From an uncultured Acidimicrobiales bacterium (GTDB taxonomy: Bacteria > Actinomycetota > Acidimicrobiia > Acidimicrobiales > CAWCAL01): a stretch of 64,000 nt of DNA. The notes beneath the pieces were generated by a model, which was not told where the DNA came from, ran no database searches, and was given only the letters and a program-made list of their open reading frames with translations. The position numbers were made by a program, and so were the translations under genes. Below are positions 671 through 63,920 of the stretch, piece by piece (the stretch's first letter is position 1; every line of letters begins with the position of its first letter). The stretch covers positions 299,628-363,627 of the forward strand of contig CAWCAL010000003.1 of the NCBI GenBank assembly GCA_963793475.1, given 5' to 3'.

Positions 671-2800
671 TCACGTTGCGTCCTGGAGCTCAGGGTCCGG
701 ATAGTGCAGCCAGGTCCCGGCGAGGGATACCTGACCTTGGCCGGGTAGTCCCAGTCGCAGGCGCCGTCGGGGAAGATCCGGGTGAGCCGTGCGGCCTGGG
801 CGTCGTCGAATGGTACGCCATAGCCACCTACGTCGACTGGTCGGAGGGTGCACTTGATGATCTGATTTGACCGAGGTGCACCGGCTGCCGTGCGTGGATC
901 GCCATGGACGGGGAACGCCTCGGTGCAGTCGTTCTGCTCCTCGTACAGCTGATCGCCCTCGAACGGCGCTCCGTTCGCTTCACAGGAGTCGGTCACGTCA
1001 TCGGGCCGGGCGGCCGCCACGGATGTGCCGTCGACGGTGCCCTCCAGCCACTCGGCGAGCATCCCGATCATCTCGACCGTCGGGAGCGGCGCCTTGACCA
1101 GGTCGGTCAGGCCCCCGCCGTCGCGGGTCCAGATCACCCGGGTGCGTGCCGCCGGGTCGCCGTCGGGACCCTCCAGCCGATCTCGGACCGAGAAGAGCCG
1201 GAACCGATCGTGGATGTCGTAGCCGAGGTCGCTGTAGAGGTCCACGTCGATGACCGGGACCTCGATGACCGCCGAGTCGCCGTGGAGGACACGACCGTGC
1301 CGATAGGCGTCCTCGATGACGTCCGGATCCGCGATCATGCGCTCCGGCGTGACGATGCCGTCCGGGTCGTAGCCGCCGATGCCCTCGTTCAGGTCGAGGA
1401 ACTGGTCGACGGTGATGGCTCCGGTCTCCAGGGCGGCTCGTCCGTACTCGACCCCGGCGTTGTCCAGGGGACGCCGACCGAAGCTGTCGTCGCCGCGGCC
1501 GAAGAGGTTGACGTTGGCGTCCTGCAGGGTGCAACGGGCGCCCCTGTCGTTGACGAAGGGGTCATAGATCAGGGTGCGGGGGACGACGGCGGCGCATCCG
1601 AGGGTGGGGTCGACGGCCGGGACGAAGGTGTCGATCCAGGCGGCGCAGAATCCCGAGACTCCCGTGGCCCTGGACGGCCAGCCGCTGCTCACCGTCGAAG
1701 GTCGATCCGGCGTCGGTGGCCCAGAACGGACTCGAGCAGGCCGCAATCGGTCACCCCGGGAGCGATCGAGACGGCGTCGGGGAACGACACCAGCGGGTTC
1801 AGGGCGTCGAGCAGTCCCGGGTAGTTCTGGGCGATGAGGTATTGCTGGATGGCTCCCCCACTGCCGCCCTGCCCGATGGTCCACCGGGGGACGCCGAACG
1901 TCTCGATGAAGTGCTCCTTGACCATCATGACGGTCTCGGCGCTGACGACGTCGTTACAGGTGGTCTGGAACGTGTTGAGCGTCGAACTGGCGACGGCATA
2001 ACCGGCGGCCAGCAGCTCGGTGTAGCCGATGGGCTCGGAACCGAGGAACGTGCCCTGCCAGTAGCCGGTACCGCATCCTCCACCGAACGTGTAGACGAGC
2101 AGGCCGTTCCAGCCTTGGGGGACGGCGAACTCGTAGACCGCCCGGTTGAGCGTGCCGATCTCGACGTCGACCACCACGGGCACGCCGGTACCGCCGGTGG
2201 AGACCTGTCGGCCGTCGATGTCGTCGTCGGATTCCACCTCGGCCCACATCCCGTCGGACTTCAGGTAGCGCTGTCGCCGGATCGGTTCGGCGTGGCAGTC
2301 CTCGTCGGGTGGACCCAGCCCGAAGCCCTCGGCGGTACAGATGTACGGCTCCTGGTGCGGCCCGGAGAAGATCGGACCCGTCACGGGGTGGACCGTCAGG
2401 TCCAGCTCGGATTCCCCACTCGGCCCGGAGATCACGACCGACGTGTCGCCGGGGACCAGGCCGGTGACCTCGATCAGTCGAGCGTCCTCCAGTCCGGCCG
2501 GCGGTCCGGCGTCGTGGGTTCGCTGCGGGGTGGCGTCGACCAGCGGCTGCTCGATTCCCCCGACGGTGAGGGAGGCAGCGTCGTCGGAACCGTGGACCGC
2601 CAACACCACCGAGTCGCCGGTGACGTACTCGGCCCGGGCGGAGACCGCTTCCATGTCGGGCGCCGGCCCGCTGGGCTCGTCGACGAGGGAGCTGGCGGTG
2701 GACGGGTCGGCGGCGGCACCGGAGTCCTCGTCTCCCGCGCAGGCACCGGCGATCAGCACGACCGCGAGTCCGGTGACCAGCAGGTTCCTCTTCCCGACGA
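671..2800 (-). pseudogene. Exported lipoprotein, DUF6351 / tannase-like alpha/beta-hydrolase type, with the frame broken at least 3 times as assembled
   Basis: Track ORFs 1689..2759, 637..1884 and 671..853 are consecutive pieces of one protein. The junctions read ...GGSGGAIQQYLIAQNYPGLLDALNPLVSFPDAVSIAPGVTDCGLLES | FWATDAGSTFDGEQRLAVQGHGSL | GFCAAWIDTFVPAVDP...IFPDGACDWDYP | GQGQVSLAGTWLHYPDPELQDAT*. Frame changes fall near 1728, 1655 and 775. A lipoprotein signal KRNLLVTGLAVVLIAGAC lies upstream of the track start at 2759, and no canonical start codon was found there. The family name is from memory only. Confidence 0.6.
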
Positions 2801-2961
2801 TTTCGTACCCCGTTTCGCGCCACGACCGGAGGTCTCGATCGCTCCGACCCTACCGGCCCCGCGCCGGGCCGTTCGAGGAGCCCGAGCCGGTCACATGTCA
2901 CACTCGATGGGTGGCCACGTCGCCGAGCACGGTGCACCTGCTGCGTCGGACGGTCGGCGCA

Positions 2962-6658: not shown

Positions 6659-6693
6659 CCGCTCCGAATCTGAGCTCGGAGATTTCTCCCGCG

Positions 6694-10524: not shown

Positions 10525-10558
10525 GCCGTTTTGGCCGGAGCACGCTCGCTTCGCTCCC

Positions 10559-16064: not shown

Positions 16065-17169
16065 GTGCTGGAGGTGCTCGCTGTCGTCGTCGGGGTTGCG
16101 CTGGTCGTCACCGCGCTGGCCGACATGTTGAACACGTTGGTCACCACCCAGACGTCCCAGGCCCGGTGGTGGCTCACCGGGCAGATCTACCGGCGCAGCT
16201 GGACGGTGATGCGGTGGATCGCCAGCCACCTGCGCGACGAGCGGATCGCCGACCGGTTGCTGGGCACGTTCGCCCCCCTGTCGGTCCTCCTGCTGCTGAC
16301 CGCGTGGGTGGTGCAGCAAATCGTCGGGTTCGGCCTGATCTGGTGGGGCGTGGGCGGGCTCTCGGGCGCCGGCTCGTTGGGCGACGCGCTCTACTACTCG
16401 GGGGTCGTCTACTTCACACTGGGCTTCGGCGAGGTCGTGCCTGCCGAGGCGGTGCCCCGTATCGGCGCGCTCGTCGAGGCCTTCGCCGGCGTACTCACCA
16501 CCGCGATGGTCATCGGCTACCTGCCGGCCATGTACTCGGCCTACAGCGAGCGCGAGCGGAAGCTGATGACCCTCGACGCGGGGACGTCCGAGCGCATCAC
16601 TCCGACCGCATTGGTCATCTCCCGCTCACCCTCGGCCGACCCCGACGAGCTCGTCTCCTTCTTCGAGGGCTGGGAGGATTGGGTGGCCGGGGTGATCGAG
16701 ACCCATACCAGCTTCCCGATGCTCATGCTGTTCCGCTCCCAGCACCGGGGCCAGAACTGGGTCACGGCCCTCGGCCTGCTCTCCGATGCCGCACTTCAGT
16801 GTCAGATGATCCGCGGGAGCGGAGAACCGGGCGCCGTACTGGATGTTCCGCCGCTCGGTGCGCCTGTTCCGGATGCTCACCGAGGGAGCAGACCTGAGCG
16901 AGTACCGGACGCGATTCGACGAGGTCTACGCCACAGACCAGAACGAGATGTGGGCCGACCTCTACCACGAGCTCGAGGCGCACGGGTTCGACCTGGTTCC
17001 CGAGCGCGTGGCCCGCCAGCGCACGCAAGAGCTGCGACGTGAGTTCGACGCCCGGCTCGAGTTCCTCATCGACGAGCTGATGGCACCGCGAGGATTCTGG
17101 GGCCACGACGTGGCGGCCCAGGGAGAGCACGCGTCGCTGCCGACCATCCGACCCGATCGGTCAGAGTGA
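16065..17169 (+). CDS. Two-TM potassium-channel-like protein with C-terminal cytoplasmic domain (one frameshift as assembled)
   Basis: Track ORFs 16065..17042 and 16843..17169 join as ...ALQCQMIRGSGE | (N)RAPYWMFRRSVRLFRMLTEG..., with the frame change between about 16812 and 16838. The pore region YYSGVVYFTLGFGEVVP carries a TxGxGE selectivity-filter-like motif. Confidence 0.75.
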
Positions 17170-19527: not shown

Positions 19528-19950
19528 TCACTCGACGATGAGTACGCCGGGCATCCCGATGTCGATGGTGCCGTGAATGGAGCAGTAGTAGCGATAGGTG
19601 CCCGGCTCGGTGAACCGGAACTCGGCGGAGTCGCCGGGCGCGAAGGCCTCCTCGCCGACGGCCCAGGGTGCGTCGGGGTCCTCGGGCACGATGTCGTGGT
19701 CGTTGCGACCGCGGTTCTCCCAGACCACCGTGGCGCCGGCGGGGACCGTCTGTTCTTCTGGGTTGAACGAGTTGTCGACGGCCAGGATGACGACGGTTTC
19801 GTCGCTGAGGGGTGTCGTCGTGGCCGAGCCTCCGCCCGCAGCGACGTCGGTGTCGTCGTCGCCCCCGCACGCGGTGAGGGCGAAGAGCGCAAGGATGACG
19901 GGGGCAAGCGCTCGGCGTCGCTGCGAGCGCGGATGTCCGGTGTGAAACAC
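19528..19950 (-). CDS. Cupredoxin (plastocyanin/azurin-like type-1 copper) lipoprotein
   Basis: GTG 19950 gives the signal RRRALAPVILALFALTACGGDDD. Copper ligand pattern: NDHDIVP ... YYCSIHGTIDIGMPG (H ... C-x2-H-x5-M). Confidence 0.85.
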   Translation of the reverse strand: MFHTGHPRSQRRRALAPVILALFALTACGGDDDTDVAAGGGSATTTPLSDETVVILAVDNSFNPEEQTVPAGATVVWENRGRNDHDIVPEDPDAPWAVGEEAFAPGDSAEFRFTEPGTYRYYCSIHGTIDIGMPGVLIVE

Positions 19951-20008
19951 GTCGGGAAGGTAGCCGACCGCGCGTCCTGCGTCACGATCATCCGAGGGTT
20001 GTCTGTGC

Positions 20009-20915
20009 TTGACTCTCGTGATGACGCGCTCTCCCGACATCGGACCGATCGGCCTCTGGTACTTCACCGAGACCATGACTGCGGCCGAGGCGGCCGAGTT
20101 CGCCCGACGGGTCGAGGCCCTCGGGTACGGCGCCCTGTGGATCCCGGAGACGTTCGGTCGGGACCCGATGGCCCATGCCGCGTGGCTGCTCGCCAACACC
20201 GACCAGCTGGTCGTCGCCACCGGCATCGCCAACATCCACCACCGCCATCCCGGCGCCATGCGCCAAGCCCAGTTGACCCTGGCCGAGCAGTCCGGCAATC
20301 GGTTCATCCTGGGCATGGGGGTGTCGCACGCTCCCATCGTCGAGGGGATCCGGAAGATCACCTATGAGAAGCCGGTGGCCACGATGCGGGCGTACCTCGA
20401 AGCGATGGAGGCCTCTCCCTATCTGGCGATCGAACCGAGCGAACCGACGCCCACGCTCCTGGCGGCGCTGGGACCGAAGATGCTCGAGTTGGCCGGGACC
20501 GCCGCCGACGGGGCCCACCCGTACTGGACCACACCGGAGCACACCGCCACGGCCCGAGCGGTGCTGGGCCCGGACCCGTGGCTCTGCGTCGAGCAGAAGA
20601 TCGTGATGACCACCGATGCGGACGCCGCTCGTGCCGCCGCCCAGCGGCGCGTTGGGCATCTACGCCGACCTGCCCAACTATCGCAACAACTGGCTGCGGC
20701 TCGGGTTCACCGACGCGGACATCGACGACGGTGGCACCGACGACTTCATCGACGCACTGGTGGCCTGGGGCGACGAGAGCGCCATCCGGGATCGGATCCG
20801 CGCCCATTGGGATGCCGGGGCCGACCACGTCTGCCTCCAGCCCCTGCATCCTTCGGGCGAGATGGGTGCCGTCGACTGGAACGCGCTCGAGGCGCTCGCT
20901 CCCAACCGAGCCTGA
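20009..20915 (+). CDS. LLM-class F420-dependent oxidoreductase (one frameshift as assembled)
   Basis: Track ORFs 20009..21361 and 20616..20915 join as ...TDADAARAAAQR | ALGIYADLPNYRNNWLRLGF..., with the frame change near 20645..20652. Past that point the 20009 ORF is out-of-frame read-through. Confidence 0.8.
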
Positions 20916-41385: not shown

Positions 41386-43564
41386 GGGGAGCTCCGTTGC
41401 AGGGACGGGGTCGGCGATGCTGTCGGCGTGACGTCGGAGCGCGACCGGAACCCACGAAAGCGACGCAGCCGCAGCGAGTTCGTGACGACGAACAGCGAGG
41501 AGAACCCCATGGCCGCCGACGCGATCATCGGGCTGAGCACCCCGAACACGGCCAGCGGGATGGCCGCGACGTTGTACGCGAAGGCCCAGAAGAGGTTGCC
41601 CTTGATGGTGGTGAGCGTGCGCCGAGAGAGCGCGACGGCGTCGGCGGCAGCTCGCAGATCGCCCGAGACCAGGGTGAGATCGGAGGCTTCGATCGCCACG
41701 TCGGCGCCCGTGCCCAGCGCGATGCCCAGATCGGCCCGAGCCAGCGCCGGCCCGTCGTTGATGCCGTCGCCGACCATGGCCACCACCCGACCCTCGGACT
41801 GGAGTCGTGCGATCTCGGCTTCCTTTTCGTCGGGCAGCACGCCCGCGATGACCCGGGGAATGCCGACCGAGGCGGCGACCGCTTCAGCGGTCGTTCGGTG
41901 ATCACCGGTGAGCAGCGTGACCTCGAGGCCGAGCCGGCCGAAGTCGGCCACCGCGTCGGCCGAGGTGGCCTTCACCCGGTCGGCCACCACCAGAACCGCC
42001 TCGGCCCGTCCGTCCCGACCGGCCAGGACGGCGGTCCGGCCCCGCGATTCGGCGGTCGACGCCGCCGTCTCGATCGAGTCCGGAACGTCGTCGAACAGCG
42101 AGCGGCGCCCGACGCTGAGGGCGCTGCCGCCGACGCGACCGACCACACCATGGCCGGCCCGGTTCTCGAAGTGGTCCACCGGGAGGACCTCGGTGCTGGA
42201 CGCGGCGATCGCTGCAGCGATCGGGTGCTCGGACCGCGACTCGAGCGAGGCGGCCAGGGCCAGGAGTCGGGAGCCATCGGCCTCGGGGGCGACGACGTCG
42301 ACCAGTTCCATCCGGCCCTCGGTGACCGTGCCGGTCTTGTCCAACACGAGCGTGTCGACCCGGCGGCTGTCCTCGAGCACCTCGCCGCCCTTGATGATGA
42401 TGCCCAGCTGAGCGCCCCGGCCGGTCCCCACCATGATCGCCAGCGGCGTGGCGAGACCGAGGGCGCAGGGGCAGGCGATCACCAGGACGGCGACGGCGGC
42501 GGTGAAGGCCTCGTGCGCGGCATGCCCGGTCACGAGCCAGCCGACGAGCGTGAGGAGGGCGATGCCGATGGCGGTGGGCACGAAGACGGCGGCGACGCGG
42601 TCGGCCAGCCGCTGGACCGGAGCCCGGCTGCCCTGGGCCTGCGTCACCAGGTCCATGATCTGGGCCAGAGCCGTCTCGGAACCGACCCGGGTGGCCTCGA
42701 CGACGAGAAAGCCGTGGGTGTTGATCGTGGCGCCGATGACGTCGTCGCCGACGGTCACCTCGACGGGAACCGGTTCGCCCGTGACCATCGCGGCGTCCAC
42801 CGCCGAGTGACCCTCGACCACGGTGCCGTCGGTGGCGATCTTCTCCCCGGGCCGGACGGTGAAGCGCATGCCCACCTCGAGGGCGTCGATGGGGATCTCG
42901 TCGCCGCTCTCGAGTCGAGCGGTTCCGGCCCCGAGTTCGGCCAGCGCACGGATGGCGTCACCCGACCGCCGGGTGGCGCGCGCTCGAGCCACTTGCCCAG
43001 CAGGACGAGCGTGATGATCACCGCGCCGGTCTCGAAGTACAGATGGCCACCGGAGACGTCGGCCAGGAGCACCACCATGGACCAGGTCCACGACGACAGC
43101 GTGCCCATCGACACCAGCGTGTCCATCGTGGTCGTGCCGTGCCGGGCGTTGATGAAGGCCGCCCGATGGAAGATCCACCCGGACCACCACGTGACAGGCG
43201 TGGCCATGGCGGCCACGACCCACTCCCAGCCTGCGAACTGCAGTGCGCCGACCATCGACAGCACCATCGTGGGGACACCCAGAGCGACGGCGACGATCAA
43301 GCGGCGGCGAAGATCGTCCTCCCGGGAGGACGCACCGTCGTCCACGTCGTCGCTGCCGACCGCGTAGCCGAGCGCCTCGACCACGTCGCGGATCGTGTCC
43401 TCGTCGACCGACCCGTCGTGTGAGACGGTGGCTCGCCCGGTGGCGAAGTTGACGTTGGCTTCCTCGACGCCGTCCAGCCGCCCGAGCTTCCGCTCGATGC
43501 GACCGGCGCAGGCCGTGCAGGTCATGCCTTCGACAGGCAGATCGGCACGGGTGTCGGTGGCCAT
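41382..43564 (-). CDS. copA: Copper-translocating P1B-type ATPase (one frameshift as assembled)
   Basis: Track ORFs 42755..43564 and 41382..43223 join as ...[13 protein letters not shown] | [18 protein letters not shown]..., with the frame change near 42975..42985. Motifs: [12 protein letters not shown] (HMA), [23 protein letters not shown] and [10 protein letters not shown]. Confidence 0.92.
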
Positions 43565-43692: not shown

Positions 43693-45266
43693 TCAGGTGA
43701 GGCCGAGGCGTTCGAGTTGCTCGGCCGGTGCCTCCACCTCGACCAGCGCCGTCCGGAGGAGCTCGGCCATGTCGTGCTCGGCCTGCTCCCCCGCCCGGTT
43801 CTCCTGCTCGTCGGGGTCGAGGTCGAGCCGGTACACGTGGTGCTGGTCGACCTGGTGGCCCAGGGCCCAGATCGGCAGCGGATCGCCGGCCTCGAAGGGC
43901 TGACGGAGCACGGGCACCTCGGTGCCGGGCATGGTGTCGAGCCAGGCTCGCCGGTCGGGCGCCGGCATCCCGACGACGCCGTCGATGTGGGTGGGCATGG
44001 TCGACCACCGATTGGACCAGGCCGACAGCGGGTAGTTGTCGGTGACCGGCGCCCGGGCGTACTTCGTGGCTCCGTCGGTGACCTGGACCCAGTTGCCCCA
44101 CACGCCTCCGATCGCCCAGTCCCGCACCGAGTCGGTGGTGCCGTCGAGGAGTGGGGCGAGCGAGACCCCGTGCGTGGTGTGGTCCACCCCTACGTCGAAC
44201 GCGTCGGCGATGGTGGCGAACAGATCGACGTTGGTGGTGAGTGCGTCGCAGGTTCCGCCGCCCTCCACCCCCGGCCAGTGAATGAGCAACGGCGTGTGGC
44301 CGAGCGGCTCGTACTGCGGCACGTTGGGCTTCCCCCAGATGTCCCGACCGGCACGCTCGTCACCCAGGTAGTGGCCGTGATCGGTGCAGAGGATCAACGC
44401 GGTGTCGTCCCACAGGTCCTGCTGGTCGAACGCGTCCAGGATTCGCCCGAACCAGTCGTCGATCATCGAGAGCTTGGCGCCGTAGTTGGCACGGATGTGT
44501 CGCCCTTCGGCTTCGGTCAGGAGGCCGTTGGCGACGGCACCGTCCGCATACGGCGGCCAGATGATCCATTCGTCGTCCCACGGGCCGTCCTGGTAGCGGT
44601 CGACCCACGGCTCAGGGGTGTCGAACGGCTCGTGGGGGTCGAACTCGTCGACGAAGAGGAACCAGCGGTCGTGGTGGGGGGTGGCGTCGGTGAGGAACCG
44701 CGCCGCCTCGGTCATCGTGCGCGGACCGGGGTAGTCGGCTTCGGCCCGGAAGAACGTCCGACTTCGGTCGTATCCGCGGTCGATGACGTCGGCGCCGAAG
44801 ATCTTCTCGAAGAACCACCCGCCCCGTACTGCTGGCCGGGCGGGAGCGCCGACCCATGACGGGTCTCGGTAGGTGCGCCACGGGTCGCCCTCGTGACCGC
44901 GGCAGATAGTCCCATCCGTTGAAGTCGGTGTGGTAGTTCTCGCCGCCACTCTCGAACAGGTGGGGATGATCGGTGGCCAGGAAACTGGTGACCCCCTGGT
45001 GGCGGAGCACGCGGCGTGATGGGCTGCTCCCACGCCTCGATCGAACCCCAGGGCTTCCAGAGGAAGTCGAGCGCACCGCAGAGGATGTCGTGGCGGGCCG
45101 GCATACACGGCAGCGACCCCGTGACGTGGCGGGTGAAGCGGGTGGCGTGTCGGGCGGCGAATCGGTCCAGATTCGGCGTGGTGAACTCGGTCCCGCCGTA
45201 CGAGCCCAGCAGATGGCGGTTCAAGGAGTCGAGCAGGACCACGCAGACGTTGCTGGGCTTCGCCAT
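43693..45266 (-). CDS. Cys-type sulfatase (two frameshifts as assembled)
   Basis: Three track ORFs (44712..45266, 44612..45076, 43693..45270) join into one protein. The sequence runs MAKPSNVCVVLLDSLNRHLLG...SLPCMPARHDILCG...GSIEAWEQPIT | RVLRHQGVTSFLATDHPHLFESGGENYHTDFNGWDYL | RGHEGDPWRTYRDPSW...ILCTDHGHYLGD... Frame changes fall near 45022 and 44900. Confidence 0.85.
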
Positions 45267-51098: not shown

Positions 51099-53190
51099 TC
51101 ACAAGAGCGCAGCGTCCACGATCTGGTCCTCTGACAACAACACGTGCGCTGCGGCCGCGCCGAGGGGGATCGGCGAGTCGAGGCCGCAGACCCGACGGAT
51201 CTCGCCGGAGAAACCCTCGGTGACCAGTGCGGTGATGATCGCCTCACCCACTCCCCCGGTGGGACGGGTCTCGTCGGCCACCAGGACCCGGCCGGTGGCC
51301 GCAGCGTCGCGGAGGAGATCCTCGACGGGAAGTGGTGCCAGCCAGCGCAGGTCGACGACCCGGGCGTCGACCCCGGCCTCGGCCAACCGGCGCTGCGCGC
51401 GCAACGAGAGGAAGAGCCCGTTCGCCCAGGTGACGATCGTCAGATCCCGGCCGACACCGTGCGTGCGGGCGCGCCCGAGCGGCACGTGGCCGTCATGGGG
51501 TGCCGCCGTCCACAGCCCGTCGCCCTCCTCGTGCAGATCGACGGTGTGGTAGCGAGCGATCGGTTCGAGGAAGGCGCAGACCGCTCCGTCGACACCGGCC
51601 GCTGCGAGGCAGGTGCGCAACATCGGCCCCGCGTCGTCGGGGTGGCCCGGCGACGCGATCACCAGTCCGGGGATGTCCCGCAGGACCGCGACCGAGTTGT
51701 CGTTGTGAAAATGGCCGCCGAATCCCCTCTGGTGGGCGTAGGCAGCGATGCGCACCACCATCGGGTTGCGGTACTGCCCCTGCGAGAAGAACGACAGGGT
51801 GGCCGCCTCGCCCCGCAGCTGGTCCTCGGCGTTGTGCAGGTACGCCAGATACTGGATCTCGGGAACCGGAAGGAACCCGTTGACCGCGCTTCCCAGCGCA
51901 AGGCCCAGGATCGACTGCTCGTCCAGTTCGGTGTCGAAGACCTGCTGCGATCCGTGGCGTCGCTGGAGGCCGCGCGTCACGCCGTAGACGCCGCCCTTGC
52001 CCCCGACGTCCTCACCGAAGACCAGCACGCCCGGATCGGCGGCGAGGGCCGCGTCCAATGTGTGGTTGATCGTCTGCGCCAACGTCCGGGGCGTGTTGTC
52101 GTCGGACGCGTGACCCGCCAGCTCCCGAGCCGCATCCGCGACCCTCTCGGGGTGGCGCACGGCGAGCGGGCCGATGATCGTCTGCGCCGAGGTGAGCTCG
52201 GGCTCGGCGAGCAGCGAGCTTGCCCGTGAACGGATCTCGGTTCGCAGGTCGAGATACCAGCTGACCAGATCGTCGGGCCGAGCCTCGCCGCACCCGACGA
52301 GCAGCCGCGCCGTGGCCAGGATGGGGTCGCGAGCGCGGTCAGCTCGCACCGCAGCCGGATCCCGGTACGCCGATTCGGCGTCGCTCCCGGCGTGCCCGAG
52401 GAACCGAACCGTCCGGAGGTGCAGGAACGCAGGAGTGCCGTCGCGCCGCGCCGCACCGACTAGCTCGGCGGTGGTCTCGAGCACACCGGTGGGATCGGTG
52501 CCGTCGGCCGCGGCCCAGCGCAGCCCGGGGCGAGCCGAGGTGGAGCGCTCGACCCACTCGGGTGGGGTGGGCACGCTGATGCCGAGACCGTTGTCCTCGC
52601 ACACGAACAGGATCGGGCATCGTTCGCCGACGTGGGCGGCGAGTGCAGCCCGATTGAGGGCCCCCTGGGCGGTCGAGTGGTTCAGCGAGGCGTCGCCGAA
52701 ACTGCAGGTCACGACCGAGTCGGCCGGCCAGGTCGTCCCGGCTTCCGGAGCGGCGCGCTCGAGGCTGAGGGCGAGGCCGACCGCACGAGGGAGGTGGGAC
52801 GCAATGGTCGAGGTCTGCGGGATGACGGACAGCTCACGCCGACCGAACACCTTGTGACGTCCGCCGGCCATGGGCTCGGTGGAGCGGGCCAGCAGACCGC
52901 GCAGGACGTCGTCGACCGGGTCCACGCCCGGGACCGTTCCGGCGCGCGGCGACGTAGAACCCGCCCGACCGGTAGTGGAGCAATGCGGGGTCGGACGGCC
53001 CCAGCACCATGGCGACTGCCGCATTGGCCTCATGACCGGCCGACGCGATCGTGTAGTAGCCGTGGCCCCCCGCTCGGAGCCATCGGGCCGTGTGGTCGAG
53101 CAGGCGGCTGGTGACCTGCGCCTCGAGGAGCAGGTCGAGCGCCAGCGGATCGAAGGTCGCACTCGGCCAGGCCGTTCCATCCGGCACCAA
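51099..53190 (-). CDS. Fused alpha/beta TPP-dependent 2-oxoacid dehydrogenase E1 component (one frameshift as assembled)
   Basis: Track ORFs 52834..53190 and 51099..53279 join as ...ASAGHEANAAVAMVLGPSDPALLHYRSGGFYVA | ...GTVPGVDPVDDVLRGLLARSTEPMAGGRHKVFG..., with the frame change near 52940..52950. The alpha part carries GDASLNHSTAQGALN. The beta part carries VFGEDVGGKGGVYGVT and DTELDEQSILGLALG. The start is uncertain (GTG 53190 or TTG 53193; the in-frame stop is at about 53245). Confidence 0.85.
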
Positions 53191-55479: not shown

Positions 55480-56052
55480 ATGAGAAGCGCCAGCCTGGTG
55501 GATGACCAGCTTGCGGCCCAGATCGACGTGGCCGAAGCGCGCCTCGCGGCCTTTCTGACCTGTCTCGACGAGGTGTCCGACCAGTCGATCCGCCGCCGAC
55601 TCACGGTGCGGGCCGAAGGGGTCGACCGGCGCTGCTCGACCCTCCGGGCCACCGTGGGCGAGCCCACTCCCATCCCGATCGGGACACCGACGGCGGTCGA
55701 AGACCTCGGAGCGACGATGGACACGCTCGAAGCCGATCTGGACGCTGCGACCCAGGTCGAGGCCGGCCCCTACAAGGCGGCCGCCGATCGGCAGGCTCGG
55801 GCGTGGCGGGGCCGCACCGACCGGCTCCGGGTGCAGGCGGCGCTGGGTGTCATGGAACTGAAGGACGACCTGGAGGGTCTGGCCCGTCGGCTCGACCACG
55901 TACGGGCTTCGGCCCTCGTGGAACTGCGTGAAGCGGTCAGCGATGCCAGGGATGGCGTCGAGGACGTTCGGGGCGACATGGAGGAGGTGCTCGGCGACCT
56001 GCGCCGAGCCGTCGACCGAGCGGTCGGGGCGATCGGCGACCCGGCGCCATGA
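55480..56052 (+). CDS. Hypothetical all-helical acidic/basic protein, translationally coupled to the radical SAM gene
   Basis: In-frame ATG 55480 within track ORF 55432..56052. Sequence MRSASLVDDQLAAQIDVAEARLAAFL...LKDDLEGLARRLDHVRASALVELREAVSDARDGVEDVRGDMEEVLGDLRRAVDRAV. Its stop overlaps the ATG at 56049 of the next gene (ATGA). Confidence 0.55.
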   Translation: MRSASLVDDQLAAQIDVAEARLAAFLTCLDEVSDQSIRRRLTVRAEGVDRRCSTLRATVGEPTPIPIGTPTAVEDLGATMDTLEADLDAATQVEAGPYKAAADRQARAWRGRTDRLRVQAALGVMELKDDLEGLARRLDHVRASALVELREAVSDARDGVEDVRGDMEEVLGDLRRAVDRAVGAIGDPAP

Positions 56053-57141
56053 CGGCGGTGGCCACCCGCTACTGGCACACCCTGGATGACGGGCGGGTCC
56101 AGTGCGATGTGTGCCCTCGAGCCTGCAAGCTGCGCGACGGGCAGAAGGGCGTGTGCTTCGTGCGCGGTCGGGTCGGTGACGGCATCGTCCTCCACACGTA
56201 CGGCCGCTCGAGCGGGTTCTGCGTCGACCCGATCGAGAAGAAGCCGCTCAACCACGTCCTCCCCGGCTCGACCACCTTCTCCTTCGGCACGGCCGGCTGC
56301 AATCTCGCCTGCCGGTTCTGCCAGAACTGGGACATCTCCAAGTCCAAGGAGATCGACACCCTCGCCGCCTCGGCCACCCCCGAGATGATCGCCGGAGCTG
56401 CGGACGACCTGGGGTGCCGCAGCGTGGCGTTCACCTACAACGATCCGACCATCTTCCTCGAGTACGCCATCGATGTCGCCGAGCGCGTGTCACGCTCGGG
56501 GCCTCCGGACCGTTGCCGTCACCGCCGGCTACATCTGTCCGGAGCCGCGAGCCGACTTCTATCGCCACCTCGATGCGGCCAATGTCGACCTGAAGGGGTT
56601 CAGCGAGGACTTCTACCGGCACACATGCGGGGCCGAGCTCGGCGCGGTCCTGGACACGCTGCGATACCTCGACGAAACCGACGTCTGGGTCGAGCTCACC
56701 ACCCTGTTGATCCCCGGACTCAACGACAGCGACGCCGAGCTGGACGCCATGACTGCGTGGGTCGTCGACCACCTCGGCCCTGACGTGCCCATGCACTTCT
56801 CGGCCTTCCACCCCGACTACCGGATGCTGGACCGACCGCCGACACCGCCCGAGACGCTCAGCCACGCCCGGTCCAGAGCACTCGCCAACGGCGTGCGCTA
56901 CGCCTACACCGGCAATGTCCACGACCGCGCCGGGCAGTGCACGGCCTGCGCCGCCTGCGGCGAGGTGGTGATCGACCGCGACTGGTACCGGCTGGGTCGC
57001 TACGAGCTGGACGACTCCGGCCATTGCCGGTCGTGCGGTGCGAGGATCCCCGGCATCTTCGACGGACCCTGCGGCGACGGCATCGCCACGAGTCGCCCGG
57101 TCACGCTGCACTCACCACCCGACCGGGAGCCGACCCCATGA
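56049..57141 (+). CDS. AmmeMemoRadiSam system radical SAM enzyme (one frameshift as assembled)
   Basis: Track ORFs 56049..56783 and 56473..57141 join as ...IFLEYAIDVAER | CHARGLRTVAVTAGYICPE..., with the frame change near 56484..56488. Motifs: N-terminal CDVCPRACKLRDGQKGVC, the radical SAM site GTAGCNLACRFCQNW, and a C-terminal 4-Cys ribbon CTACAACG...CRSCG. Confidence 0.85.
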
Positions 57142-57944
57142 GTACCACGCCGCGCACCGTCCGTCCTCCCGCCGTGGCCGGCACGTTCTACCCGGCCCAA
57201 CCCAGCGTGTTGCGCAGCGCGCTCCGGCGAGCCTTCGCTCGCGCCGAGCGGCCCCGCGCCGGAGCGCCCACCCCCCGAGCGCTGGTCGTCCCGCATGCCG
57301 GGTACGTGTACTCCGGAGCGGTCGCCGCCGGCGGATACCTTCGCTTGCGGCGAGCGACGCCGACCATCGAGCGGGTGGTCCTGCTCGGCCCCAGCCACTT
57401 CGTCCCCCTGGACGGTGTCGGCGTCTCCGGAGCCGACGCGTTCGCCACACCGCTGGCCGACGTGATCGTCGACGACGAGGCCCGGTCCAGGGTGCTCTCG
57501 CTTCCGGGCGTCGGGTTGAACGATGAAGCACACGAGCAGGAACACAGCTTGGAAGTGCAGCTCCCGTTCCTCCAGACCGTCCTCGACGGCTTCACCCTGC
57601 TTCCCCTTGTGGTCGGTCGGGCCGATCCCGACGATGTCGCCCGGCTCATCGACTCGTTCTGGGACGAGCCGGGGACGGTCATCGTGGTCAGCACCGATCT
57701 CTCCCACTATCACCGCTACGCCGACGCGGTTCGGCTGGACGCCCGGACCGCCGCCGCCATCGTCGCCGGGCGGGCCGACGCGATCGGCGACGCCGATGCC
57801 TGCGGGGCACGACCGCTGAGGGGGCTCCTCATCGCCGGAGGTCGCCGAGCGTGCCGGGTCGAGCGGATCGACCTCCGCAACTCGGGTGACACCACGGGGG
57901 ATCGGCAACGAGTGGTCGGGTATGGAACCTTTGCCGTCGCCTGA
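57138..57944 (+). CDS. AmmeMemoRadiSam system protein B (MEMO1 family)
   Basis: ATG 57138 overlaps the preceding stop (ATGA). Motifs: AGTFYP, VVPHAGYVYSG, LLGPSH, EHSLEVQLPFLQ and STDLSHYH. Confidence 0.85.
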   Translation: MSTTPRTVRPPAVAGTFYPAQPSVLRSALRRAFARAERPRAGAPTPRALVVPHAGYVYSGAVAAGGYLRLRRATPTIERVVLLGPSHFVPLDGVGVSGADAFATPLADVIVDDEARSRVLSLPGVGLNDEAHEQEHSLEVQLPFLQTVLDGFTLLPLVVGRADPDDVARLIDSFWDEPGTVIVVSTDLSHYHRYADAVRLDARTAAAIVAGRADAIGDADACGARPLRGLLIAGGRRACRVERIDLRNSGDTTGDRQRVVGYGTFAVA

Positions 57945-58555
57945 CCCCGTCCTCCTCACCGAGGAGGTCGACCGGCTGTTCGACGACGCACTCGAGGCCA
58001 TCGTCGGGGGTCTGGACGGTCGGCCACCGACCCTCCGGCCGCTGTCGACCCTTCCCGCCGGGCTCCGTTCCTCGATCGGGTCCTTCGTGAGCCTGTACGT
58101 CGACGACGAGCTGAACGGGTGCATCGGCACCGTCGAGCGGGTCGAACCGCTCGGTCGGGCGGTCCCACGGCTGGCGTGGTCCGCAGCATTCGGCGACCCA
58201 CGGCTTCCCCGCTGCTGCGGTCGTCCGGGATCGACCGGCTCACCATCGAGATCTCCCTGCTGTCCGCGCTCGCACCGATCGGTGCCGACTCGTCGAGACG
58301 CTGATCGAGCTCGTACTGCCTCGATGCGACGGTGTGGTCGTCCGGGCCGGCGGGCGGCAGGGATTGTTCCTGCCGAGCGTGTGGGGGCAGCTACCCGACC
58401 CCGACGCCTTCGTCGCCCAGCTCTTCCACAAGGCGGGTCTGACGCCCGGATCCTGGCCGGTCGGGACGCAGGCCCACCGCTTCACGACCACGACCTACCG
58501 GCGGGGCCCGAGCCGCCGGCCGGCCGACCCGGCCGGGATCAGAGCTTCCCGATGA
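57922..58555 (+). CDS. AmmeMemoRadiSam system protein A (AMMECR1 domain; two frameshifts as assembled)
   Basis: Three track ORFs (57886..58665, 58119..58304, 58334..58555) join into one protein. The sequence runs MEPLPSPDPV...GSFVSLYVDDELNGCIGTVE...AAFGDPRLP | PLLRSSGIDRLTIEISLLSALAPIGADS | VETLIELVLPRCDGVVVRAGGRQGLFLPSVWGQLPD... Frame changes fall at the C-run 58207..58210 and near 58290. Confidence 0.8.
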
Positions 58556-59012
58556 TCTCCTCGGCGTGCGCCGCGGTCTTCGGCCGCTTGAAGACATGCT
58601 GGATGACACCGTCCTCGTCGATGAGGAACGTCGTGCGCTGCAGTCCCGTGAACGTCTTTCCGTAGTTCTTCCGCTCGCCCCAGACGCCGTACTGCTCGAT
58701 GATGGTCCGGTCGGGATCGGCCACCAGCGGGAACGTCAGGTCGTGCTGCTCGGTGAACCGCTCGTGGCTGCTGTCGTCGTCCGGCGAGATGCCGATGACG
58801 GCGATCCCGTGCTCCTCCAGGAGTGCGAGATTGTCCCGGAGGTTGCAGGCCTGTGCGGTACAGCCCGGGGTGTTGTCCTTCGGGTAGAAGTACACCACCA
58901 CCTTTCGGCCCCGAAGCTCGGCGAGGTCGATGACCGTTCCGGTGTGGGTGGTGGCGGTGAACAGGGGCGCCGGTTGTCCGGCGTTCAGCGGGTCGGGTTT
59001 CGCGGCCATCAA
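58539..59012 (-). CDS. bcp: Peroxiredoxin Bcp (thioredoxin-dependent thiol peroxidase)
   Basis: Intact 157-aa ORF. Sequence VVVYFYPKDNTPGCTAQACNLRD carries the CxxxxC pair, followed by FPLVADPD. Confidence 0.9.
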   Translation of the reverse strand: MMAAKPDPLNAGQPAPLFTATTHTGTVIDLAELRGRKVVVYFYPKDNTPGCTAQACNLRDNLALLEEHGIAVIGISPDDDSSHERFTEQHDLTFPLVADPDRTIIEQYGVWGERKNYGKTFTGLQRTTFLIDEDGVIQHVFKRPKTAAHAEEIIGKL

Positions 59013-59136: not shown

Positions 59137-59538
59137 ATGTTCCTCGCTGCTGAATTCGGAACCGGCCAGGTGCTCTGGTCGATCTTCTACTTCTTCCTGA
59201 TCTTCCTGTGGATCTGGTTGGTCATCACCGTGTTCGTCGACATCATCCGGAGCGACGACCTCTCGGGCGGCGTGAAGGCGCTCTGGGCCGTGGTCATCAT
59301 CTTCCTCCCCTACCTCGGCATCTTCATCTATCTCATCGCTCGCGGTGGCAGCATGGCCGACCGCCAGGTCCAGGACGCCCAGGCGGCCGACGAGGCGAGA
59401 AGGGCCTACATCCGTGAGACCGCGGGCGGCTCCAGCGCAGCCGATCAGCTCGCGAAGCTCTCCGAGATGCACTCCAACGGCAAGCTGGACGACGCCGAGT
59501 ACGCCCAGGCGAAGGCGAAGGTGCTCGGGCCGACGTGA
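59137..59538 (+). CDS. PLDc_N-type small membrane protein with C-terminal SHOCT domain
   Basis: Intact 133-aa ORF. Two TMs end in KALWAVVIIFLPYLGIFIYLIARG. The C-terminus ADQLAKLSEMHSNGKLDDAEYAQAKAKVLG is a SHOCT motif. Confidence 0.75.
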   Translation: MFLAAEFGTGQVLWSIFYFFLIFLWIWLVITVFVDIIRSDDLSGGVKALWAVVIIFLPYLGIFIYLIARGGSMADRQVQDAQAADEARRAYIRETAGGSSAADQLAKLSEMHSNGKLDDAEYAQAKAKVLGPT

Positions 59539-60085
59539 GTCGCGAGGTACCGGACTGGGTCGCCGCGGCCCGTTCCGGGTGGTCCCACACTGGTCGCTCG
59601 CGGCCCGACTTCGCCGACGAACCGGGTCCGGGCCAGGAGTCGGTCTGGGATTATCCGCGGCCGCCGGTCATCGTCGCCGACCCGCGGCGGGTCGTCGTCG
59701 GGCCCCCCGACGCGCCGATCGCGGCCACCACGGCGGCCGTGCGGGTGTTGGAGACCGCCAGCCCTCCCACCTTCTACCTCCCGCCGGGCGATGTGGACCG
59801 GGACCGGCTGGTTCCGGCCGACGGGTCCTCGTTGTGCGAGTGGAAGGGCACGGCCCGGTACTGGGCCGATCGCGACCGTCCCGGGGAGCCGATCGGCTGG
59901 GAGTATCCCTCCCCGTTCGACGATTTCGCGACGCTGGCCGGCTTCCTGTCGTTCTATCCGGCCCGAGTGCCGTGTCGGGTCGACGACGAGGTCGTCCGAC
60001 CACAGGGCGGTGGCTTCTACGGGGCTGGGTGACCGACGAGATCGTCGGGCCCTTCAAGGGCGAGTCCGGGACCCAGGGCTGGTGA
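59535..60085 (+). CDS. DUF427 domain protein (one frameshift near the 3' end as assembled)
   Basis: GTG 59535 overlaps the preceding stop (GTGA). Sequence ESVWDYPRPP...TFYLPPGDV...CEWKGTARYW...VRPQGGGFYG | GWVTDEIVGPFKGESGTQGW*. The frame change is at the G-run 60021..60024, and the track ORF stops early at 60032. Confidence 0.75.
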
Positions 60086-61901
60086 GCAGCGGGGGCGCCG
60101 CTCCTACGGAGGCCGACTCGAACACCGCATCGGGGATCGGGGACCTGACGGGCTCGCAGCCACTCACCGAGGGCCTTGGCCTGCGCGTCCTGCCGCGTCG
60201 ACGCGGCCACCCCTTCGTCCAGCAGGCCTCGGATGACGAAGTTGAGTGACCGGATCGCCGGGAACCGGAATCGCTCGGTGACGAGTGGCGCCGTCTCGGG
60301 GAGCAGCTCGTGGAGCCGCTGGACGGTCAACATCGTCGTCCAACCACGCCCACGCCAGATCGGTCCGGGCGAACACGCCGAGATTGGCGTCGCCGCCCTT
60401 GTCGCCGGAACGGGCGCCGAGCACCGTGCCCAGCGCCGCCACCGTCGTCGGGCCGCCCGGCAACGGCTGTGGCGGTGCGACGTCGCGGAGCGATCGGGTC
60501 CCCCGGCGGGACCACAGACTCGACCATGACGGTGGCCGGCTGATCGCCGTCGTTCAGCATGTGCACGTACTGCGGCACCAGCTCGGCCGGCACGGTGGCC
60601 GGGCGGTAGACGCCGTAGGGCGTCGCCGCTCCCGGACCGCCTCCGAGGCCGTACATGCCGGGGATCCCGGCGAGCGCGGTGTGGACCATGGCGTCGGAGA
60701 AGGCCCGACCGACCTTGCGCTCGTCCGGGTCCTTCACCGTGAGCCGCCAGATGGCCGTCGCCTCCTCCTGGGTGGCCGGATCGGGCTTGTCCGTGCGCAC
60801 GACCCGGCTGACCGTCGAGTCGAAGTCGTCCGGCCCGTACGGGCAGGCGTCCCAGAACGCGGCCTGGGCGAAGGCGGCCTTCTCGTCGATGTCGAGCCCG
60901 GTGAGCGCGACGGTGAACGAGTTCCGGAACCCGCCCAGCTCGTTCATGGCGACCTTGAGCGTCGCGGGGGGGGCCTGGCCCCGGGTCCCGGCGACGCGGA
61001 CCCGGTCGGGACCGACCTGGTCCAGCTGGACCGTGTCGAAGCGCGCCGTCACGTCGGGCCCGAGGTAGTCCGGTCCGCCGATCTCGTACAGGAGCTGCGA
61101 CGTGACCGTCCCGACCGTGACCGCTCCCCCGGTCTCGTCGTGCTTTCCGATGACCGACGATCCGTCCTCCGCCACCTCGGCCCACGGAAACCCCAGCCGG
61201 GCGCGGCCGCCGACCTGGTCGGTCCCCTGGATCTCGTGGAAGAACGAGTAGTTGCCTCCCGTCGCCTGGGCGCTGCACTCGATGATGTGGCCGGCGACGA
61301 CCCCGCCCGCCAGGCGATCCCAGTCGTCGCGTGCCCAGCCGTGATGCCAGGCCGCCGGACCGCACGCCACCGCGGCGTCCGTGACCCGGCCGGTGATGAC
61401 GATGTCGGCGCCGCGGTCGAGCGCCTCGACGATGCCCCAACATCCGAGGTACGCGTTGGCGGTGAGGTACGCGGACGGGTCGCCCAGGTCCCCCGCAGGG
61501 CCGAAGGGCTGCAGGTGGCCGCCGTCGGCCAGCTCGACCACCCGGGGCATCAGGTCGTCGCCGCTGACGTAGGCGATCGTCGGGGCGAGGCCGAGCCCCG
61601 CCGCGACCTCGGCCACCGCGTCGGCGCACCCGTCGGGATCGAGTCCACCCGCGTTCGACACCACCTTGATGTTGCGGTCAAGGCAGGTCCCCATGACCTG
61701 TTCCATCTGCCGGACGAAGGTGCGGGCGTAGCCGCCGGCCGGATGTTTGGCCCTGATCCGGGCCAGGATCAACATGGTCAATTCGGCCAGCCAGTCGCCG
61801 GTCAGCACGTCGATCGGACCGCCCTCGACCATTTCGGTCGCGGCACTGGGGCGATCGCCGAAGAAGCCCGAGCAATTGGCGATGCGGATGGGGTCGCTCA
61901 C
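60054..61901 (-). pseudogene. AtuA-like acyclic terpene utilisation family protein (DUF1446), with about 3 frameshifts as assembled
   Basis: The GTG at 61901 overlaps the stop of the carboxylase alpha gene (GTGA). The joined sequence is given next. SDPIRIANCSGFFGDRPSAATEMVEGG...HIIECSAQATGGNYSFF...MVESVVPPG | TRSLRDVAPPQPLPGGPTTVAALGTVLGARSGDKGGDANLGVFARTDLAWAWLDDD | LTVQRLHELLPETAPLVTERFRFPAIRSLNFVIRGLLDEGVAASTRQDAQAKALGEWLRARQV | PIPDAVFES... Frame changes fall at the C-run 60500..60504, near 60330, and at the G-run 60139..60142. The 3' end is uncertain. Confidence 0.75.
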
Positions 61902-63920
61902 GAGCCGTCGGGGGCGTCGGCCGCCTCGAGCGCCACGAGAAGGTCACCGGTGTCGACGCGGTCGCCGACCGCAAAGGGCACGTCAGCGACCACCGCCGAG
62001 CCGACCGCCGTGATCCTGTGTTCCATCTTCATCGCCTCGACGACCATCAGGAGCTGGCCGTCGGCCACGCGGTCGCCGGCGTCGACGTGGACGGCGATCA
62101 CCGTGCCCGGAAGAGGGCAGATCGGTCCCCCGCCGGCCGATTCCGCCTCGTGATCCTCGAAGCGGGGGGCCCGCTGCCATGTGAGGGTGCCGGCCCGACT
62201 GCCGGTGATCGCAGTGGGGCCGTCCAGCCGGACCTCGATCACTCGCCGTAGACCGTCGAGCTCGATGACCTGGCGACCGGGAGCACGGGCCAGGAGCCGG
62301 ACCACCGCCGTTCGTCGTTCGTCAGGGGCGAGCGTGCCGTCCTCGGTGATCTCGGGCCAGGGACCGACCTTGACCGCCGCGACCTCGTCCTCGAGGACGT
62401 ATTCGAGCGGTTGGGGCACACCGTCGACGAGCCAGACCTCGCGTCGGCCCTGGGTGCGGAGATTGCGCCAGCCCGATGGGGCGAACCCGGTGACCGGGTC
62501 GGCGGCACGATCGGCGCGGTCGGACTCGAACACCGCCCCCAGCAGGAGTGCCAGCCGGTCGTCACCGGCCGGGCCGCCGCCACCGAGCGTCTCAGGGTGG
62601 CTGTCGAGGTAGGAGGTGGGCGTCCGCGCCGCGCCGAAATCGTCCTCGTCGAGAATCGCCACCAGGCTGGCCAGGTTGGTCCGGACGCCGGAGACACATG
62701 CGGTCCGCAGGGCGCGGGAGAGCCGCCGAACGGCCTCGTCCCGGGTGGGAGCGTGGGCGATGACCTTGGCCAGCAGGGAGTCGTAGTCGGGCGTGACCTC
62801 GGTCCCGGCGCGTACCCCGGCGTCGACGCGGACGTGATCGCCGATCCGGAACGCGCCGAGCCGGCCGGTGGAGGGCATCCAGTCGCGCGGCCGGGTCTTC
62901 CGCCACGAGTCGGACCTCGACGGCATGACCATCGGTGACGATCTCGTCCTGTGAGACGGGCAGGGGTTCGCCCGCCGCCACCCGCAACTGCAGCTCGACC
63001 AGATCGAGCCCGGTGACCGCCTCGGTGACCGGGTGTTCCACCTGGAGGCGGGTATTCACCTCGAGGAAGTTCACCCGTCCGTCGTCGGCGACGAGGAACT
63101 CGACCGTGCCGGCGTTCTCGTACCCGACGCTGCGGGCCAGGGCCACGGCCCCATCGCACAGAGCCCGGCGCGTGCTCTCGTCGATACCGGCCGACGGGGC
63201 CTCCTCGACGACCTTCTGATTGCGACGCTGGATCGAGCACTCCCGCTCGCCGAGATGGAGGACGCCGCCATGGGCATCGCCCATGATCTGCACCTCGATG
63301 TGCCGGCCGTGCTCGAGGTAGGGCTCGATGAAAACGGTGCCGTCCCCGAACGCCGACGCTGCCTCGCGCGACGCCGACTCGACGGCGTCGGCCAGCTCGT
63401 CCGCCTGCCGAACGATGCGCATGCCGCGACCGCCGCCGCCCGCAGCCGCCTTGACCAGGGCGGGCATGGCCACGTCGTCGGGAATGGCTCCCGGCGCGGC
63501 GGCGAGCGCCGGCGTCGTGGGCACTCCTGCGTCGACGGCGGCCTGTTTGGCCGCCACCTTGTCGCCGAGCAGGGCGATCTGGTCGGCGGTCGGTCCGACC
63601 CAGATGATCCCGGCATCGATCACGGTTCGGGCGAAGGTCGCGTTCTCGGCCAGGAATCCGTAGCCGGGGTGGATGGCCTGACAGCCGGTGTCCAGCGCGG
63701 CCTGCACGATCAGCTCGCCCCGGAGGTACGACTCGGCGGGCGAGGCGCCACCCAGCGCAACGGCCAGGTCGACCGTGTCGACGTGGAGCGCATCGGCGTC
63801 GGGCTCGGCGTAGACCCCGACCGTCCCCATACCCAGTCGGTGCGCGGTTCGGGCGATGCGCACTGCGATCTCGCCTCGGTTGGCGATGAGCAGCCGGGAG
63901 ATGGGACGGGCCGGTGCCAT
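61898..63920 (-). CDS. Biotin-dependent acyl-CoA carboxylase alpha subunit (biotin carboxylase + BCCP; MCC/geranyl-CoA carboxylase type; one frameshift as assembled)
   Basis: Track ORFs 62592..63920 and 61898..62932 join as ...GHAVEVRLVAEDPAA | (R)DWMPSTGRLGAFRI..., with the frame change near 62884..62890. Motifs: LLIANRGEIAVRI, KAAAGGGGRGMR, NTRLQVEHPVTE and the biotinylation site VVEAMKMEH. Confidence 0.9.

Follow-up and report, generated by a model that had tools for sequence, protein, structure and literature searches.

Results

Genes of the window and location of the frame breaks

The window, the 64-kb stretch of an uncultured Acidimicrobiales contig that was analysed here, holds ~55-60 genes, of which 14 are interrupted by a total of 21 frameshifts and one TGA codon (Table 1). 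The breaks were examined using a six-frame codon-usage Viterbi scan, for which 11 long ORFs of the window served as the training set, Pfam analysis of frame-joined proteins and alignment of the window with about five to six related loci. The frame breaks noted in a preliminary description of the sequence were re-located to within about 30 nt of the reported sites. That description had counted about 20 frameshifts and one nonsense codon in at least 13 conserved genes and had held that the conserved protein continues in another frame at each listed locus; the count rose slightly, and the Viterbi scan, the Pfam matches and the alignments with relatives agreed on the change of frame.

Table 1. Interrupted genes of the window. 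Positions are those of the window; inserted bases are in square brackets where the context is given, as is the missing base of DUF427. Viterbi switches are same-strand frame switches without an intergenic gap. The last two columns give the relatives against which the break is private and the length of the repaired product against that of the ortholog.
Gene	Position	Strand	Lesions	Viterbi switches	Private against	Repaired/ortholog (aa)
DUF6351 (tannase-like), three breaks	671..2759	-	insertions C 1727 and T 1651; deletion ~746-748	724/5, 1643/4, 1725/6	L085, L086 (1727, 1651)	
K-channel-like (Ion_trans_2)	16065..17169	+	1-nt insertion C 16814 (CCG[C]GGG)	16816/7	L085, L086	367/367, 90% identical, ungapped
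Cupredoxin-like	19528..19991	-	1-nt deletion 19979/19980, codon 5			154/154
Luciferase-like monooxygenase (LLM)	20021..20915	+	1-nt insertion 20643	20625/6	L085	297/296, 95% identical
FGGY sugar kinase (xylB-like)	25696..27144	-	1-nt insertion 26333; 1-nt deletion 25896/7	25896/7, 26325/6	L001, L002	482, stop-free
DUF6226-like	39716..40352	-	frameshift ~39925-39935; TGA 39878-39880			
copA P-type ATPase	41382..43564	-	1-nt deletion 42982-42984	42975/6	L001, L002	727/727, 90% identical, ungapped
Sulfatase	43693..45266	-	1-nt insertions 45013 and 44901	44894/5, 45015/6	L001, L002	523/523
Fused E1 alpha/beta dehydrogenase	51099..53190	-	1-nt insertion 52947 (GCG[C]GGC)	52933/4	L003, L004	696/696
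AmmeMemoRadiSam radical SAM enzyme	56049..57141	+	1-nt insertion 56484 (GAG[C]GCG)	56488/9	L003, L004	363/363
AMMECR1	57922..58557	+	2-nt insertion 58213-58214 (or equivalent 1-nt deletion); 1-nt deletion 58293	58197/8, 58287/8		210/210
DUF427	59535..60085	+	1-nt deletion 60022, A of GG[A]GG missing	60020/1	L003, L004	183/183
AtuA	60054..61901	-	1-nt insertions 60486, 60334 and 60139	60332/3, 60489/90	L003, L004	614/608, 89% identical, stop-free
Biotin carboxylase / acyl-CoA carboxylase alpha	61898..63920	-	1-nt insertion 62886 (TCG[C]GCG)	62883/4	L003, L004	673/673

Single HMM stretches bridged the junctions in DUF6351 (profile positions 2-651 of 655, over the first two junctions), FGGY_C (both junctions), Sulfatase (2-301 of 301, both insertions), E1_dh, Radical_SAM, AMMECR1 (both events), AtuA_ferredoxin, Biotin_carb_C and DUF6226. 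The positions of the insertions and deletions outside the DUF6226-like gene were given by multi-way alignment with the relatives. The C-terminal deletion of the DUF6351 gene was deduced from the C-terminus of the L085 protein (WDAPGQGQ..GTWLRYPDPE). The break in the cupredoxin-like gene was absent from the preliminary description: the relatives begin MIVT(S/P)GP..YLP, and the window protein reads MIVT before the frame changes. At the DUF427 site the G4 run arises because the A of GG[A]GG has been lost.

Three parts of the window (1-670, 21.5-25.7 kb and 45.9-51.1 kb) are not covered by the relatives, and the Viterbi scan alone gave no same-gene frame switch in them. Between 6672 and 14697 the comparison with the relatives gave no private 1-nt indel in the window. 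Several candidates were set aside. Viterbi switches at 7312/3 and 8206/7 are ordinary gene boundaries, laid out alike in L086 and L005. Apparent private 1-nt indels at 2886, 16013, 28579, 32333, 32621, 59012 and 59115 are intergenic and were left uncounted. The same applies to 14747, where the aligner divided a 36-nt in-frame difference in two, and to 30197, which falls within an in-frame difference of 3 nt at the start of a gene. Scans of the window for tRNAs and Rfam families gave no matches.

The preliminary description had also suggested that four unusually long convergent 3' overlaps might be the same artefact. Three of these (8220-8276, 11378-11428 and 60054-60085) were found in the gene calls of the relatives with similar lengths (57 and 51 nt in L086, 32 nt in L003 and L004), with no window-specific indel, and are therefore genuine, conserved features; the fourth, 23681-23724, lies outside the coverage of the relatives.

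Privacy, repair and coding constraint

Compared with at least two relatives that agree with one another and are in frame, the window alone carries 18 of the 21 breaks, and two further breaks (about 747 and 20643) are private against one relative; for the latter, pairwise alignment gave an intact L085 gene. No polarity could be assigned to the lesions of the DUF6226-like gene, which neither covering relative has at this locus, the stretch 39685-40437 being missing from L001 and L002. The reported frameshift and TGA are supported by a DUF6226 Pfam stretch (11-183) that covers both lesions and by an alignment with 11 homologs, in which the TGA falls on a conserved aromatic residue (F/Y). The gene is the sole candidate for a true pseudogene in the window.

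Repair was performed by removing the extra base or by adding one N. The claim that small changes would mend the breaks held in 12 genes, where 1-2 nt repairs produced ORFs with no internal stop, and the repaired length equalled that of the ortholog exactly in nine of the 12, the other three differing by 1-6 aa. Amino acid identity to the relatives was broadly alike before and after or between the shifts, at 86.6% then 91.6% in copA and 92.9/97.3/92.5% across the three sulfatase segments, with lower identity in a few C-terminal stretches. Past the first break, window-specific substitution rates at repaired codon positions 1, 2 and 3 were 0.048, 0.038 and 0.175 per site, compared with 0.042, 0.028 and 0.168 per site in unaffected coding sequence. 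The codon-position bias is thus normal downstream of the breaks, which argues that the genes have not decayed.

Spectrum and distribution of the indels

Insertions outnumber deletions 15:6; nearly all events are of 1 nt and none exceeds 2 nt, with a single nonsense codon. No larger out-of-frame deletions or IS insertions were found in the hit genes. The classic failure mode of Nanopore sequencing is the homopolymer length error, and several events had initially been placed in G or C homopolymers. This placement was not upheld: by chance 48% of the private 1-nt insertions should lengthen a run, but only 3 of 16 do so, and most are C or G insertions outside homopolymers, often a C that splits a short G run. 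Half of the coding insertions (6/12) are of the G[C]G or C[G]C type compared to an expected 7.4% (p=1e-4). The same odd GG to GCG signature is found in L002, with 11 of 26 insertions (p=1e-6), and was not seen in contig_43791 (3/29); the error process thus differs between assemblies.

An even, random-like interspersion of broken and intact genes had been described as well. The events are instead clustered, with 6 of the 20 gaps shorter than 200 nt (P=0.0007), and a patchy indel pattern is also present in L085.

Indel load and provenance of the related assemblies

The density of private indels of a length other than a multiple of three was 0.51 per kb in the window, compared with 0.05 in L001, 0.21 in L086 and 0.41 in L004, and higher values of 1.5, 1.55 and 1.8 per kb in L085, L002 and L003, respectively. 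In L002 some 20 such indels fall within 4.4 kb, where the gene calls collapse, while L003 and L004 have E1, carboxylase or AMMECR1 breaks of their own at sites other than those of the window. The best-assembled relative, contig_43789, has essentially no private frameshifts in 39 kb.

The window's own proteins were found in NCBI and ENA on a 474,121-bp contig, and exact-protein look-ups using these proteins did not find a second copy of the strain. L005 is the MAG MFD09964.bin.1.195 of Microflora Danica, and the relatives in ENA carry Flye-style names (contig_N). The long-read catalogue of that project is Nanopore-only, assembled by Flye with --meta --nano-hq and one Medaka round, with no short-read polishing (PMC12313526), and the same group reported that R10.4 bins below ~40x coverage are still in need of short-read polishing (Sereika et al., 2022, PMC9262707). 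The closest relatives look like products of Nanopore-only, apparently Flye/Medaka, metagenome assemblies, and we infer that the sequencing and assembly provenance of the window is the same.

Discussion

On the evidence of the assembled sequences the breaks are, with a probability of roughly 0.88, errors in the consensus sequence of a long-read metagenome assembly and not real gene loss. The preliminary description had proposed the same, namely intact conserved genes carrying 1-nt indels that were most likely assembly error, and this core reading is supported by the privacy of the breaks, their clean repair, the retained constraint, the indel spectrum and the loads of the sister assemblies. The organism, an uncultured soil member of the Acidimicrobiales, would carry intact genes, and the consensus would retain about 0.3-0.5 indel errors per kb. 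The errors would be mostly spurious single C or G insertions in a GC-rich, non-homopolymer context, lying in patches of poor local consensus. Because each error would shift the frame, gene callers would report fragments, and the reads would be expected to contradict the consensus at the break sites.

The pattern resembles the indels of Nanopore-only MAGs recorded by truncation tests of the IDEEL type (PMC9262707; PMC12313526), in which 1-base indels fragment otherwise intact conserved genes and the load differs between contigs of one project. The classic form of these indels is an error in the length of long homopolymers, whereas the window has C or G insertions, often a C within a G run of 2-4 nt (GG to GCG), in a genome of 70% G+C. 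That most events differ from homopolymer length errors is a point against the assembly-error reading; others are the lack of the GG to GCG signature in contig_43791, the lack of a clearly essential gene among those hit, and that several hits in one gene are also expected of a truly dead gene.

Genuine and very recent large-scale pseudogenisation, with about 20 real frameshifts in accessory metabolic genes that arose, for example, in a mutator phase or under relaxed selection, is considered very unlikely. Such an origin would be consistent with the presence of the indels in the deposited sequence and their derivation on the branch of the window, with the multiple hits per gene (three each in DUF6351 and AtuA), with the additional nonsense codon of the DUF6226-like gene and with the fact that no clearly essential gene is among those hit. 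Some real local gene loss is also indicated by the truncated ABC ATPase remnant at 24678-24844. Many interrupted conserved genes, some with several lesions, are likewise a feature of decay of the type seen in Mycobacterium leprae, Rickettsia, Shigella and Yersinia pestis. The window differs from such reductive genomes: it lacks a deletional bias, its hit genes have neither larger deletions nor IS insertions, nonsense codons are nearly absent, codon-position constraint is retained, and every lesion is confined to a single assembly. Bacterial pseudogenes show a deletional bias, and the 15:6 excess of insertions is the opposite. The single nonsense codon compares with ~8 expected per 20 frameshifts, by our own rough estimate for a normal mutation spectrum. 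Codon-position constraint is not relaxed past the breaks and all 12 repaired ORFs lack internal stops. Private frameshifts reach 1.8 per kb in the sister assemblies, and no living genome could bear the densities of 1.5-1.8 per kb seen in some of these contigs, so there they cannot be biological; contig_43789 has essentially none.

Slightly less probable again is a consensus mosaic, in which co-assembled close strains would have been collapsed into one contig and their haplotypes mixed by the polisher; the breaks would still be artefacts, but would stem from strain mixing and not from base-calling at low depth. The sample ERZ25039514 does contain two collinear relatives, contig_43789 and contig_43791, the errors are patchy, and L085 has a 1.6-kb tract 98.5% identical to the window against a background of ~85%. 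The relatives are, however, ~14-19% apart in DNA, which is too distant for collapse by an assembler. The odd insertion signature could also be read as the trace of real indels from an insertion-biased GG to GCG mutator episode, but this would have about one quarter of the genes of the region frameshifted before any other sign of decay was added by selection or drift, and it is given a lower probability still.

Least probable is decoding of the shifts by the cell through programmed ribosomal frameshifting or transcriptional slippage. E. coli copA uses a programmed -1 frameshift and, as in prfB and dnaX, the frame changes by a single nucleotide inside a functional gene, but this explanation is effectively refuted by the orthologs of the relatives, all of which keep their frame at these sites, and against it stand also the GC-rich sites with no slippery heptamer or A/T run, the implausible number of 21 sites over 14 unrelated genes, and the position of the window copA site, which is the wrong one for a programmed shift, at aa 195 in the membrane domain and not past the first metal-binding domain.

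For those polishing Nanopore assemblies of high G+C content, the assembly-error reading draws attention to patchy C or G insertions that split short G or C runs and are not of the textbook homopolymer type. If reads proved the indels real, the window would represent a striking and very recent mass inactivation of genes; nothing here points that way. The main value of the result is as a caveat, since about one quarter of the genes of the window are mis-called as fragments. Inferences from this contig on absent functions, on pseudogenes, on fused or split genes and on odd short ORFs should be drawn only after repair of the frames at the coordinates given in Table 1.

Frame breaks in the window

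The window, with a G+C content of about 69–70% along its entire length, was decoded with a six-frame-plus-noncoding Viterbi procedure, using a codon-usage model trained on 11 long ORFs taken from it. Same-strand frame switches without an intergenic gap were recovered at positions that essentially match the frame breaks listed in the preliminary description (see table). Additional switches at 7312 and 8206 were rejected as frameshifts, being ordinary gene boundaries. Proteins made by joining the frames at the switches contained no internal stops, and a single Pfam stretch spanned the junctions for DUF6351 (profile 2–651 of 655), FGGY_C, Sulfatase, E1_dh, Radical_SAM, AMMECR1, AtuA_ferredoxin and Biotin_carb_C; in copA one frame carried the HMA domain and the other the ATPase.

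Multi-way MAFFT alignments, in which pairs of related loci (DNA identity 81–88%) were set against 51 kb of the window, located the breaks to the base and identified the odd-one-out sequence at each. An indel was termed private when one aligned sequence carried it and the relatives were in frame; those at ~747 and 20643 were polarised by one relative. The deletion at 19979 is a new event, where the cupredoxin-like protein starts MIVT(S/P)GP..YLP in the relatives, and MIVT followed by a frame jump in the window. With the unpolarised DUF6226-like frameshift included, there were 21 frameshifts and one TGA across 14 genes, which confirms and slightly extends the original observation and upholds its density of about one event per 3 kb.

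Frame breaks, window-private indels (1 nt unless stated) and protein lengths after repair
Gene	Viterbi switch	Insertion	Deletion	Repaired (aa)	Ortholog (aa)
DUF6351	724/5, 1643/4, 1725/6	1651, 1727	~747		
K-channel-like	16816/7	16814		367	367
Cupredoxin-like			19979	154	154
LLM oxidoreductase	20625/6	20643		297	296
xylB-like kinase	25896/7, 26325/6	26333	25896/7	482	486
copA	42975/6		42982–4	727	727
Sulfatase	44894/5, 45015/6	44901, 45013		523	523
E1 alpha/beta	52933/4	52947		696	696
Radical SAM	56488/9	56484		363	363
AMMECR1	58197/8, 58287/8	58213–58214 (2 nt)	58293	210	210
DUF427	60020/1		60022	183	183
AtuA	60332/3, 60489/90	60139, 60334, 60486		614	608
Carboxylase alpha	62883/4	62886		673	673

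Repair and coding constraint

Deleting the inserted bases and placing one N at each deletion gave 12 ORFs with no internal stops that aligned end to end with their orthologs. Identity to the orthologs was mostly similar before, between and after the shifts (sulfatase 92.9/97.3/92.5%, copA 86.6% then 91.6%), dropping in a handful of C-terminal segments, for example to 62.7% over the final 67 residues of xylB. Past the first break, window-specific substitutions in the repaired frame occurred at 0.048/0.038/0.175 per site at codon positions 1/2/3, compared with 0.042/0.028/0.168 in unaffected window coding sequence, so that the codon-position bias typical of constrained genes was kept.

The lesions comprised 15 insertions and 6 deletions, every event being 1–2 nt, and the hit genes contained no larger out-of-frame deletions and one nonsense codon. 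Bacterial pseudogenes usually show a deletional bias and mixed lesion types. Genuine, very recent pseudogenisation is therefore very unlikely, as the codon-position rates, insertion/deletion balance and lesion types of the hit genes gave no sign of real decay.

The DUF6226-like gene could carry two more errors or be a genuine pseudogene. One Pfam stretch spans both its frameshift and its TGA (39878–39880). Alignment with 11 homologs placed the TGA, one base from TGG, at a conserved F/Y preceding a conserved R, and the frameshift immediately past a CGCDACD motif. The stretch (39685–40437) separates the window's NMO gene from its Fe-dependent repressor gene; the related loci L001 and L002 lack it there, and its nearest homologs are less than 62% identical.

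Indel signature and related assemblies

The proposed link to homopolymers was not borne out, run extension being under-represented: 3 of the 16 private 1-nt insertions lengthened a run, where chance predicts 48%. At DUF427 the reported G run (60021–60024) is present, and arose by loss of A from GG[A]GG; a deletion does lie at the reported xylB site, where the lost base adjoins the 4-nt run without belonging to it. In 6 of 12 window coding insertions the added base was a C flanked by Gs or a G flanked by Cs (7.4% expected, p=1e-4), typically splitting a G run of 2–4 nt (CCGGGG to CCG[C]GGG). This pattern was shared by L002 (11/26 insertions, p=1e-6) and absent from L003 and L085 (3/29). The window's events were also clustered rather than evenly interspersed: 6 of 20 gaps measured less than 200 nt (P=0.0007 if placement were uniform).

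For the SNF2 helicase (33794–37060), the best relatives were 84–95% identical and came in every case from metagenomic Acidimicrobiia. The related loci were taken from ENA ERZ25039514 contig_43789 (L001, L086) and contig_43791 (L003, L085), the latter collinear with the window at all sampled stretches (670–21495; 48.9–64 kb), from ERZ25039499 contig_59147 (L002) and ERZ25039600 contig_70258 (L004), and from GenBank CAVONU010000003.1, 'MAG: uncultured Acidimicrobiales bacterium isolate MFD09964.bin.1.195' (L005), which agreed with L086 at every indel within the 8-kb block aligned for both. MFD denotes the Microflora Danica long-read catalogue, assembled from Nanopore reads only with Flye --meta --nano-hq and one Medaka round (PMC12313526). 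The same group reported that R10.4 bins below ~40x coverage still require polishing with short reads, and that indels in the consensus lead to frameshifts in the called genes (PMC9262707).

Private indels of non-3n length per kb of aligned sequence numbered 0.05 (L001), 0.21 (L086), 0.41 (L004), 0.51 (window), 1.5 (L085), 1.55 (L002) and 1.8 (L003). In L002 about 20 private insertions fell within 4.4 kb, in three consecutive genes, where gene calls degrade to ORFs without a Pfam match. E1 and carboxylase are fragmented in L003, and AMMECR1 is broken in L004, at sites other than those of the window. Clean and dirty stretches alternate along one and the same contig, and indel densities as high as the 1.5–1.8 per kb of L085, L002 and L003 cannot be biological. 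Within patches of these public contigs (L002 17–21.4 kb, L003 2.3–4.2 kb, L085 6.8–9.8 kb), private 1-nt indels reach densities of about 1 per 200 nt and ruin the calling of genes that include FGGY kinases, pyridoxal decarboxylase and E1 dehydrogenase.

Overlaps and other locus differences

Convergent 3' overlaps at 8220–8276, 11378–11428 and 60054–60085 had been suspected as artefacts. Gene calls in the relatives show the same overlaps (57 and 51 nt in L086, 32 nt in L003/L004); a fourth suspected overlap, at 23681–23724, lies outside the relatives' coverage. The first two fall within 6672–14697, which held no window-private 1-nt indels in the alignment with relatives, and are thus conserved features or shared gene-calling effects rather than assembly artefacts. 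Window-private in-frame insertions at 8314 and 9980 (21 nt each) and 41174 and 60086 (18 nt each), judged against two or three relatives per site, were taken as ordinary coding length variation, not artefacts.

A tract of 1.6 kb (10281–11884), comprising an FKBP isomerase and part of a SnoaL_4 gene, is ~98.5% identical to L085 against a background of ~85%, with L086 and L005 at 80–86%, which suggests that lineages recombined recently or that the consensus is a mosaic. At 24678–24844 (+) the sequence resembles an ABC-transporter ATPase N-terminal remnant (...ITLAIRAGTSVAFLGPNGSGK) that stops directly past the Walker A motif, with no continuation in any other frame, followed by a small membrane-protein ORF (24883–25153) and an SRPBCC-like ORF (25180–25656). 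An ABC_tran gene (260-aa product) lies near the matching position in L002, and the remnant appears to result from real truncation or from rearrangement, not from a 1-nt error. In L001 and L002 a cytochrome P450 and a TetR gene separate pyridoxal decarboxylase from the SNF2 helicase; the window (36990–37298) has neither. Radical SAM, Memo and AMMECR1 make up a complete AmmeMemoRadiSam operon at 56049–58557 (+). The indels hit the first and last of these three genes and leave Memo (within ORF 56937–57944), the middle one, intact; its product matches a database protein at 100% identity. That protein is encoded on a 474,121-bp contig that also carries a 307-aa FKBP, equal in length to the FKBP ORF of the window.

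Origin of the frameshifts

Assembly indel error, as originally proposed, accounts for the window frameshifts with a probability of roughly 0.88, supported by the private indels, the clean repair, the constraint kept and the relatives likewise affected. A strain-mixing artefact is very unlikely, and programmed frameshifting can practically be dismissed. Protein databases drawing on these related assemblies will hold many spurious fragments.
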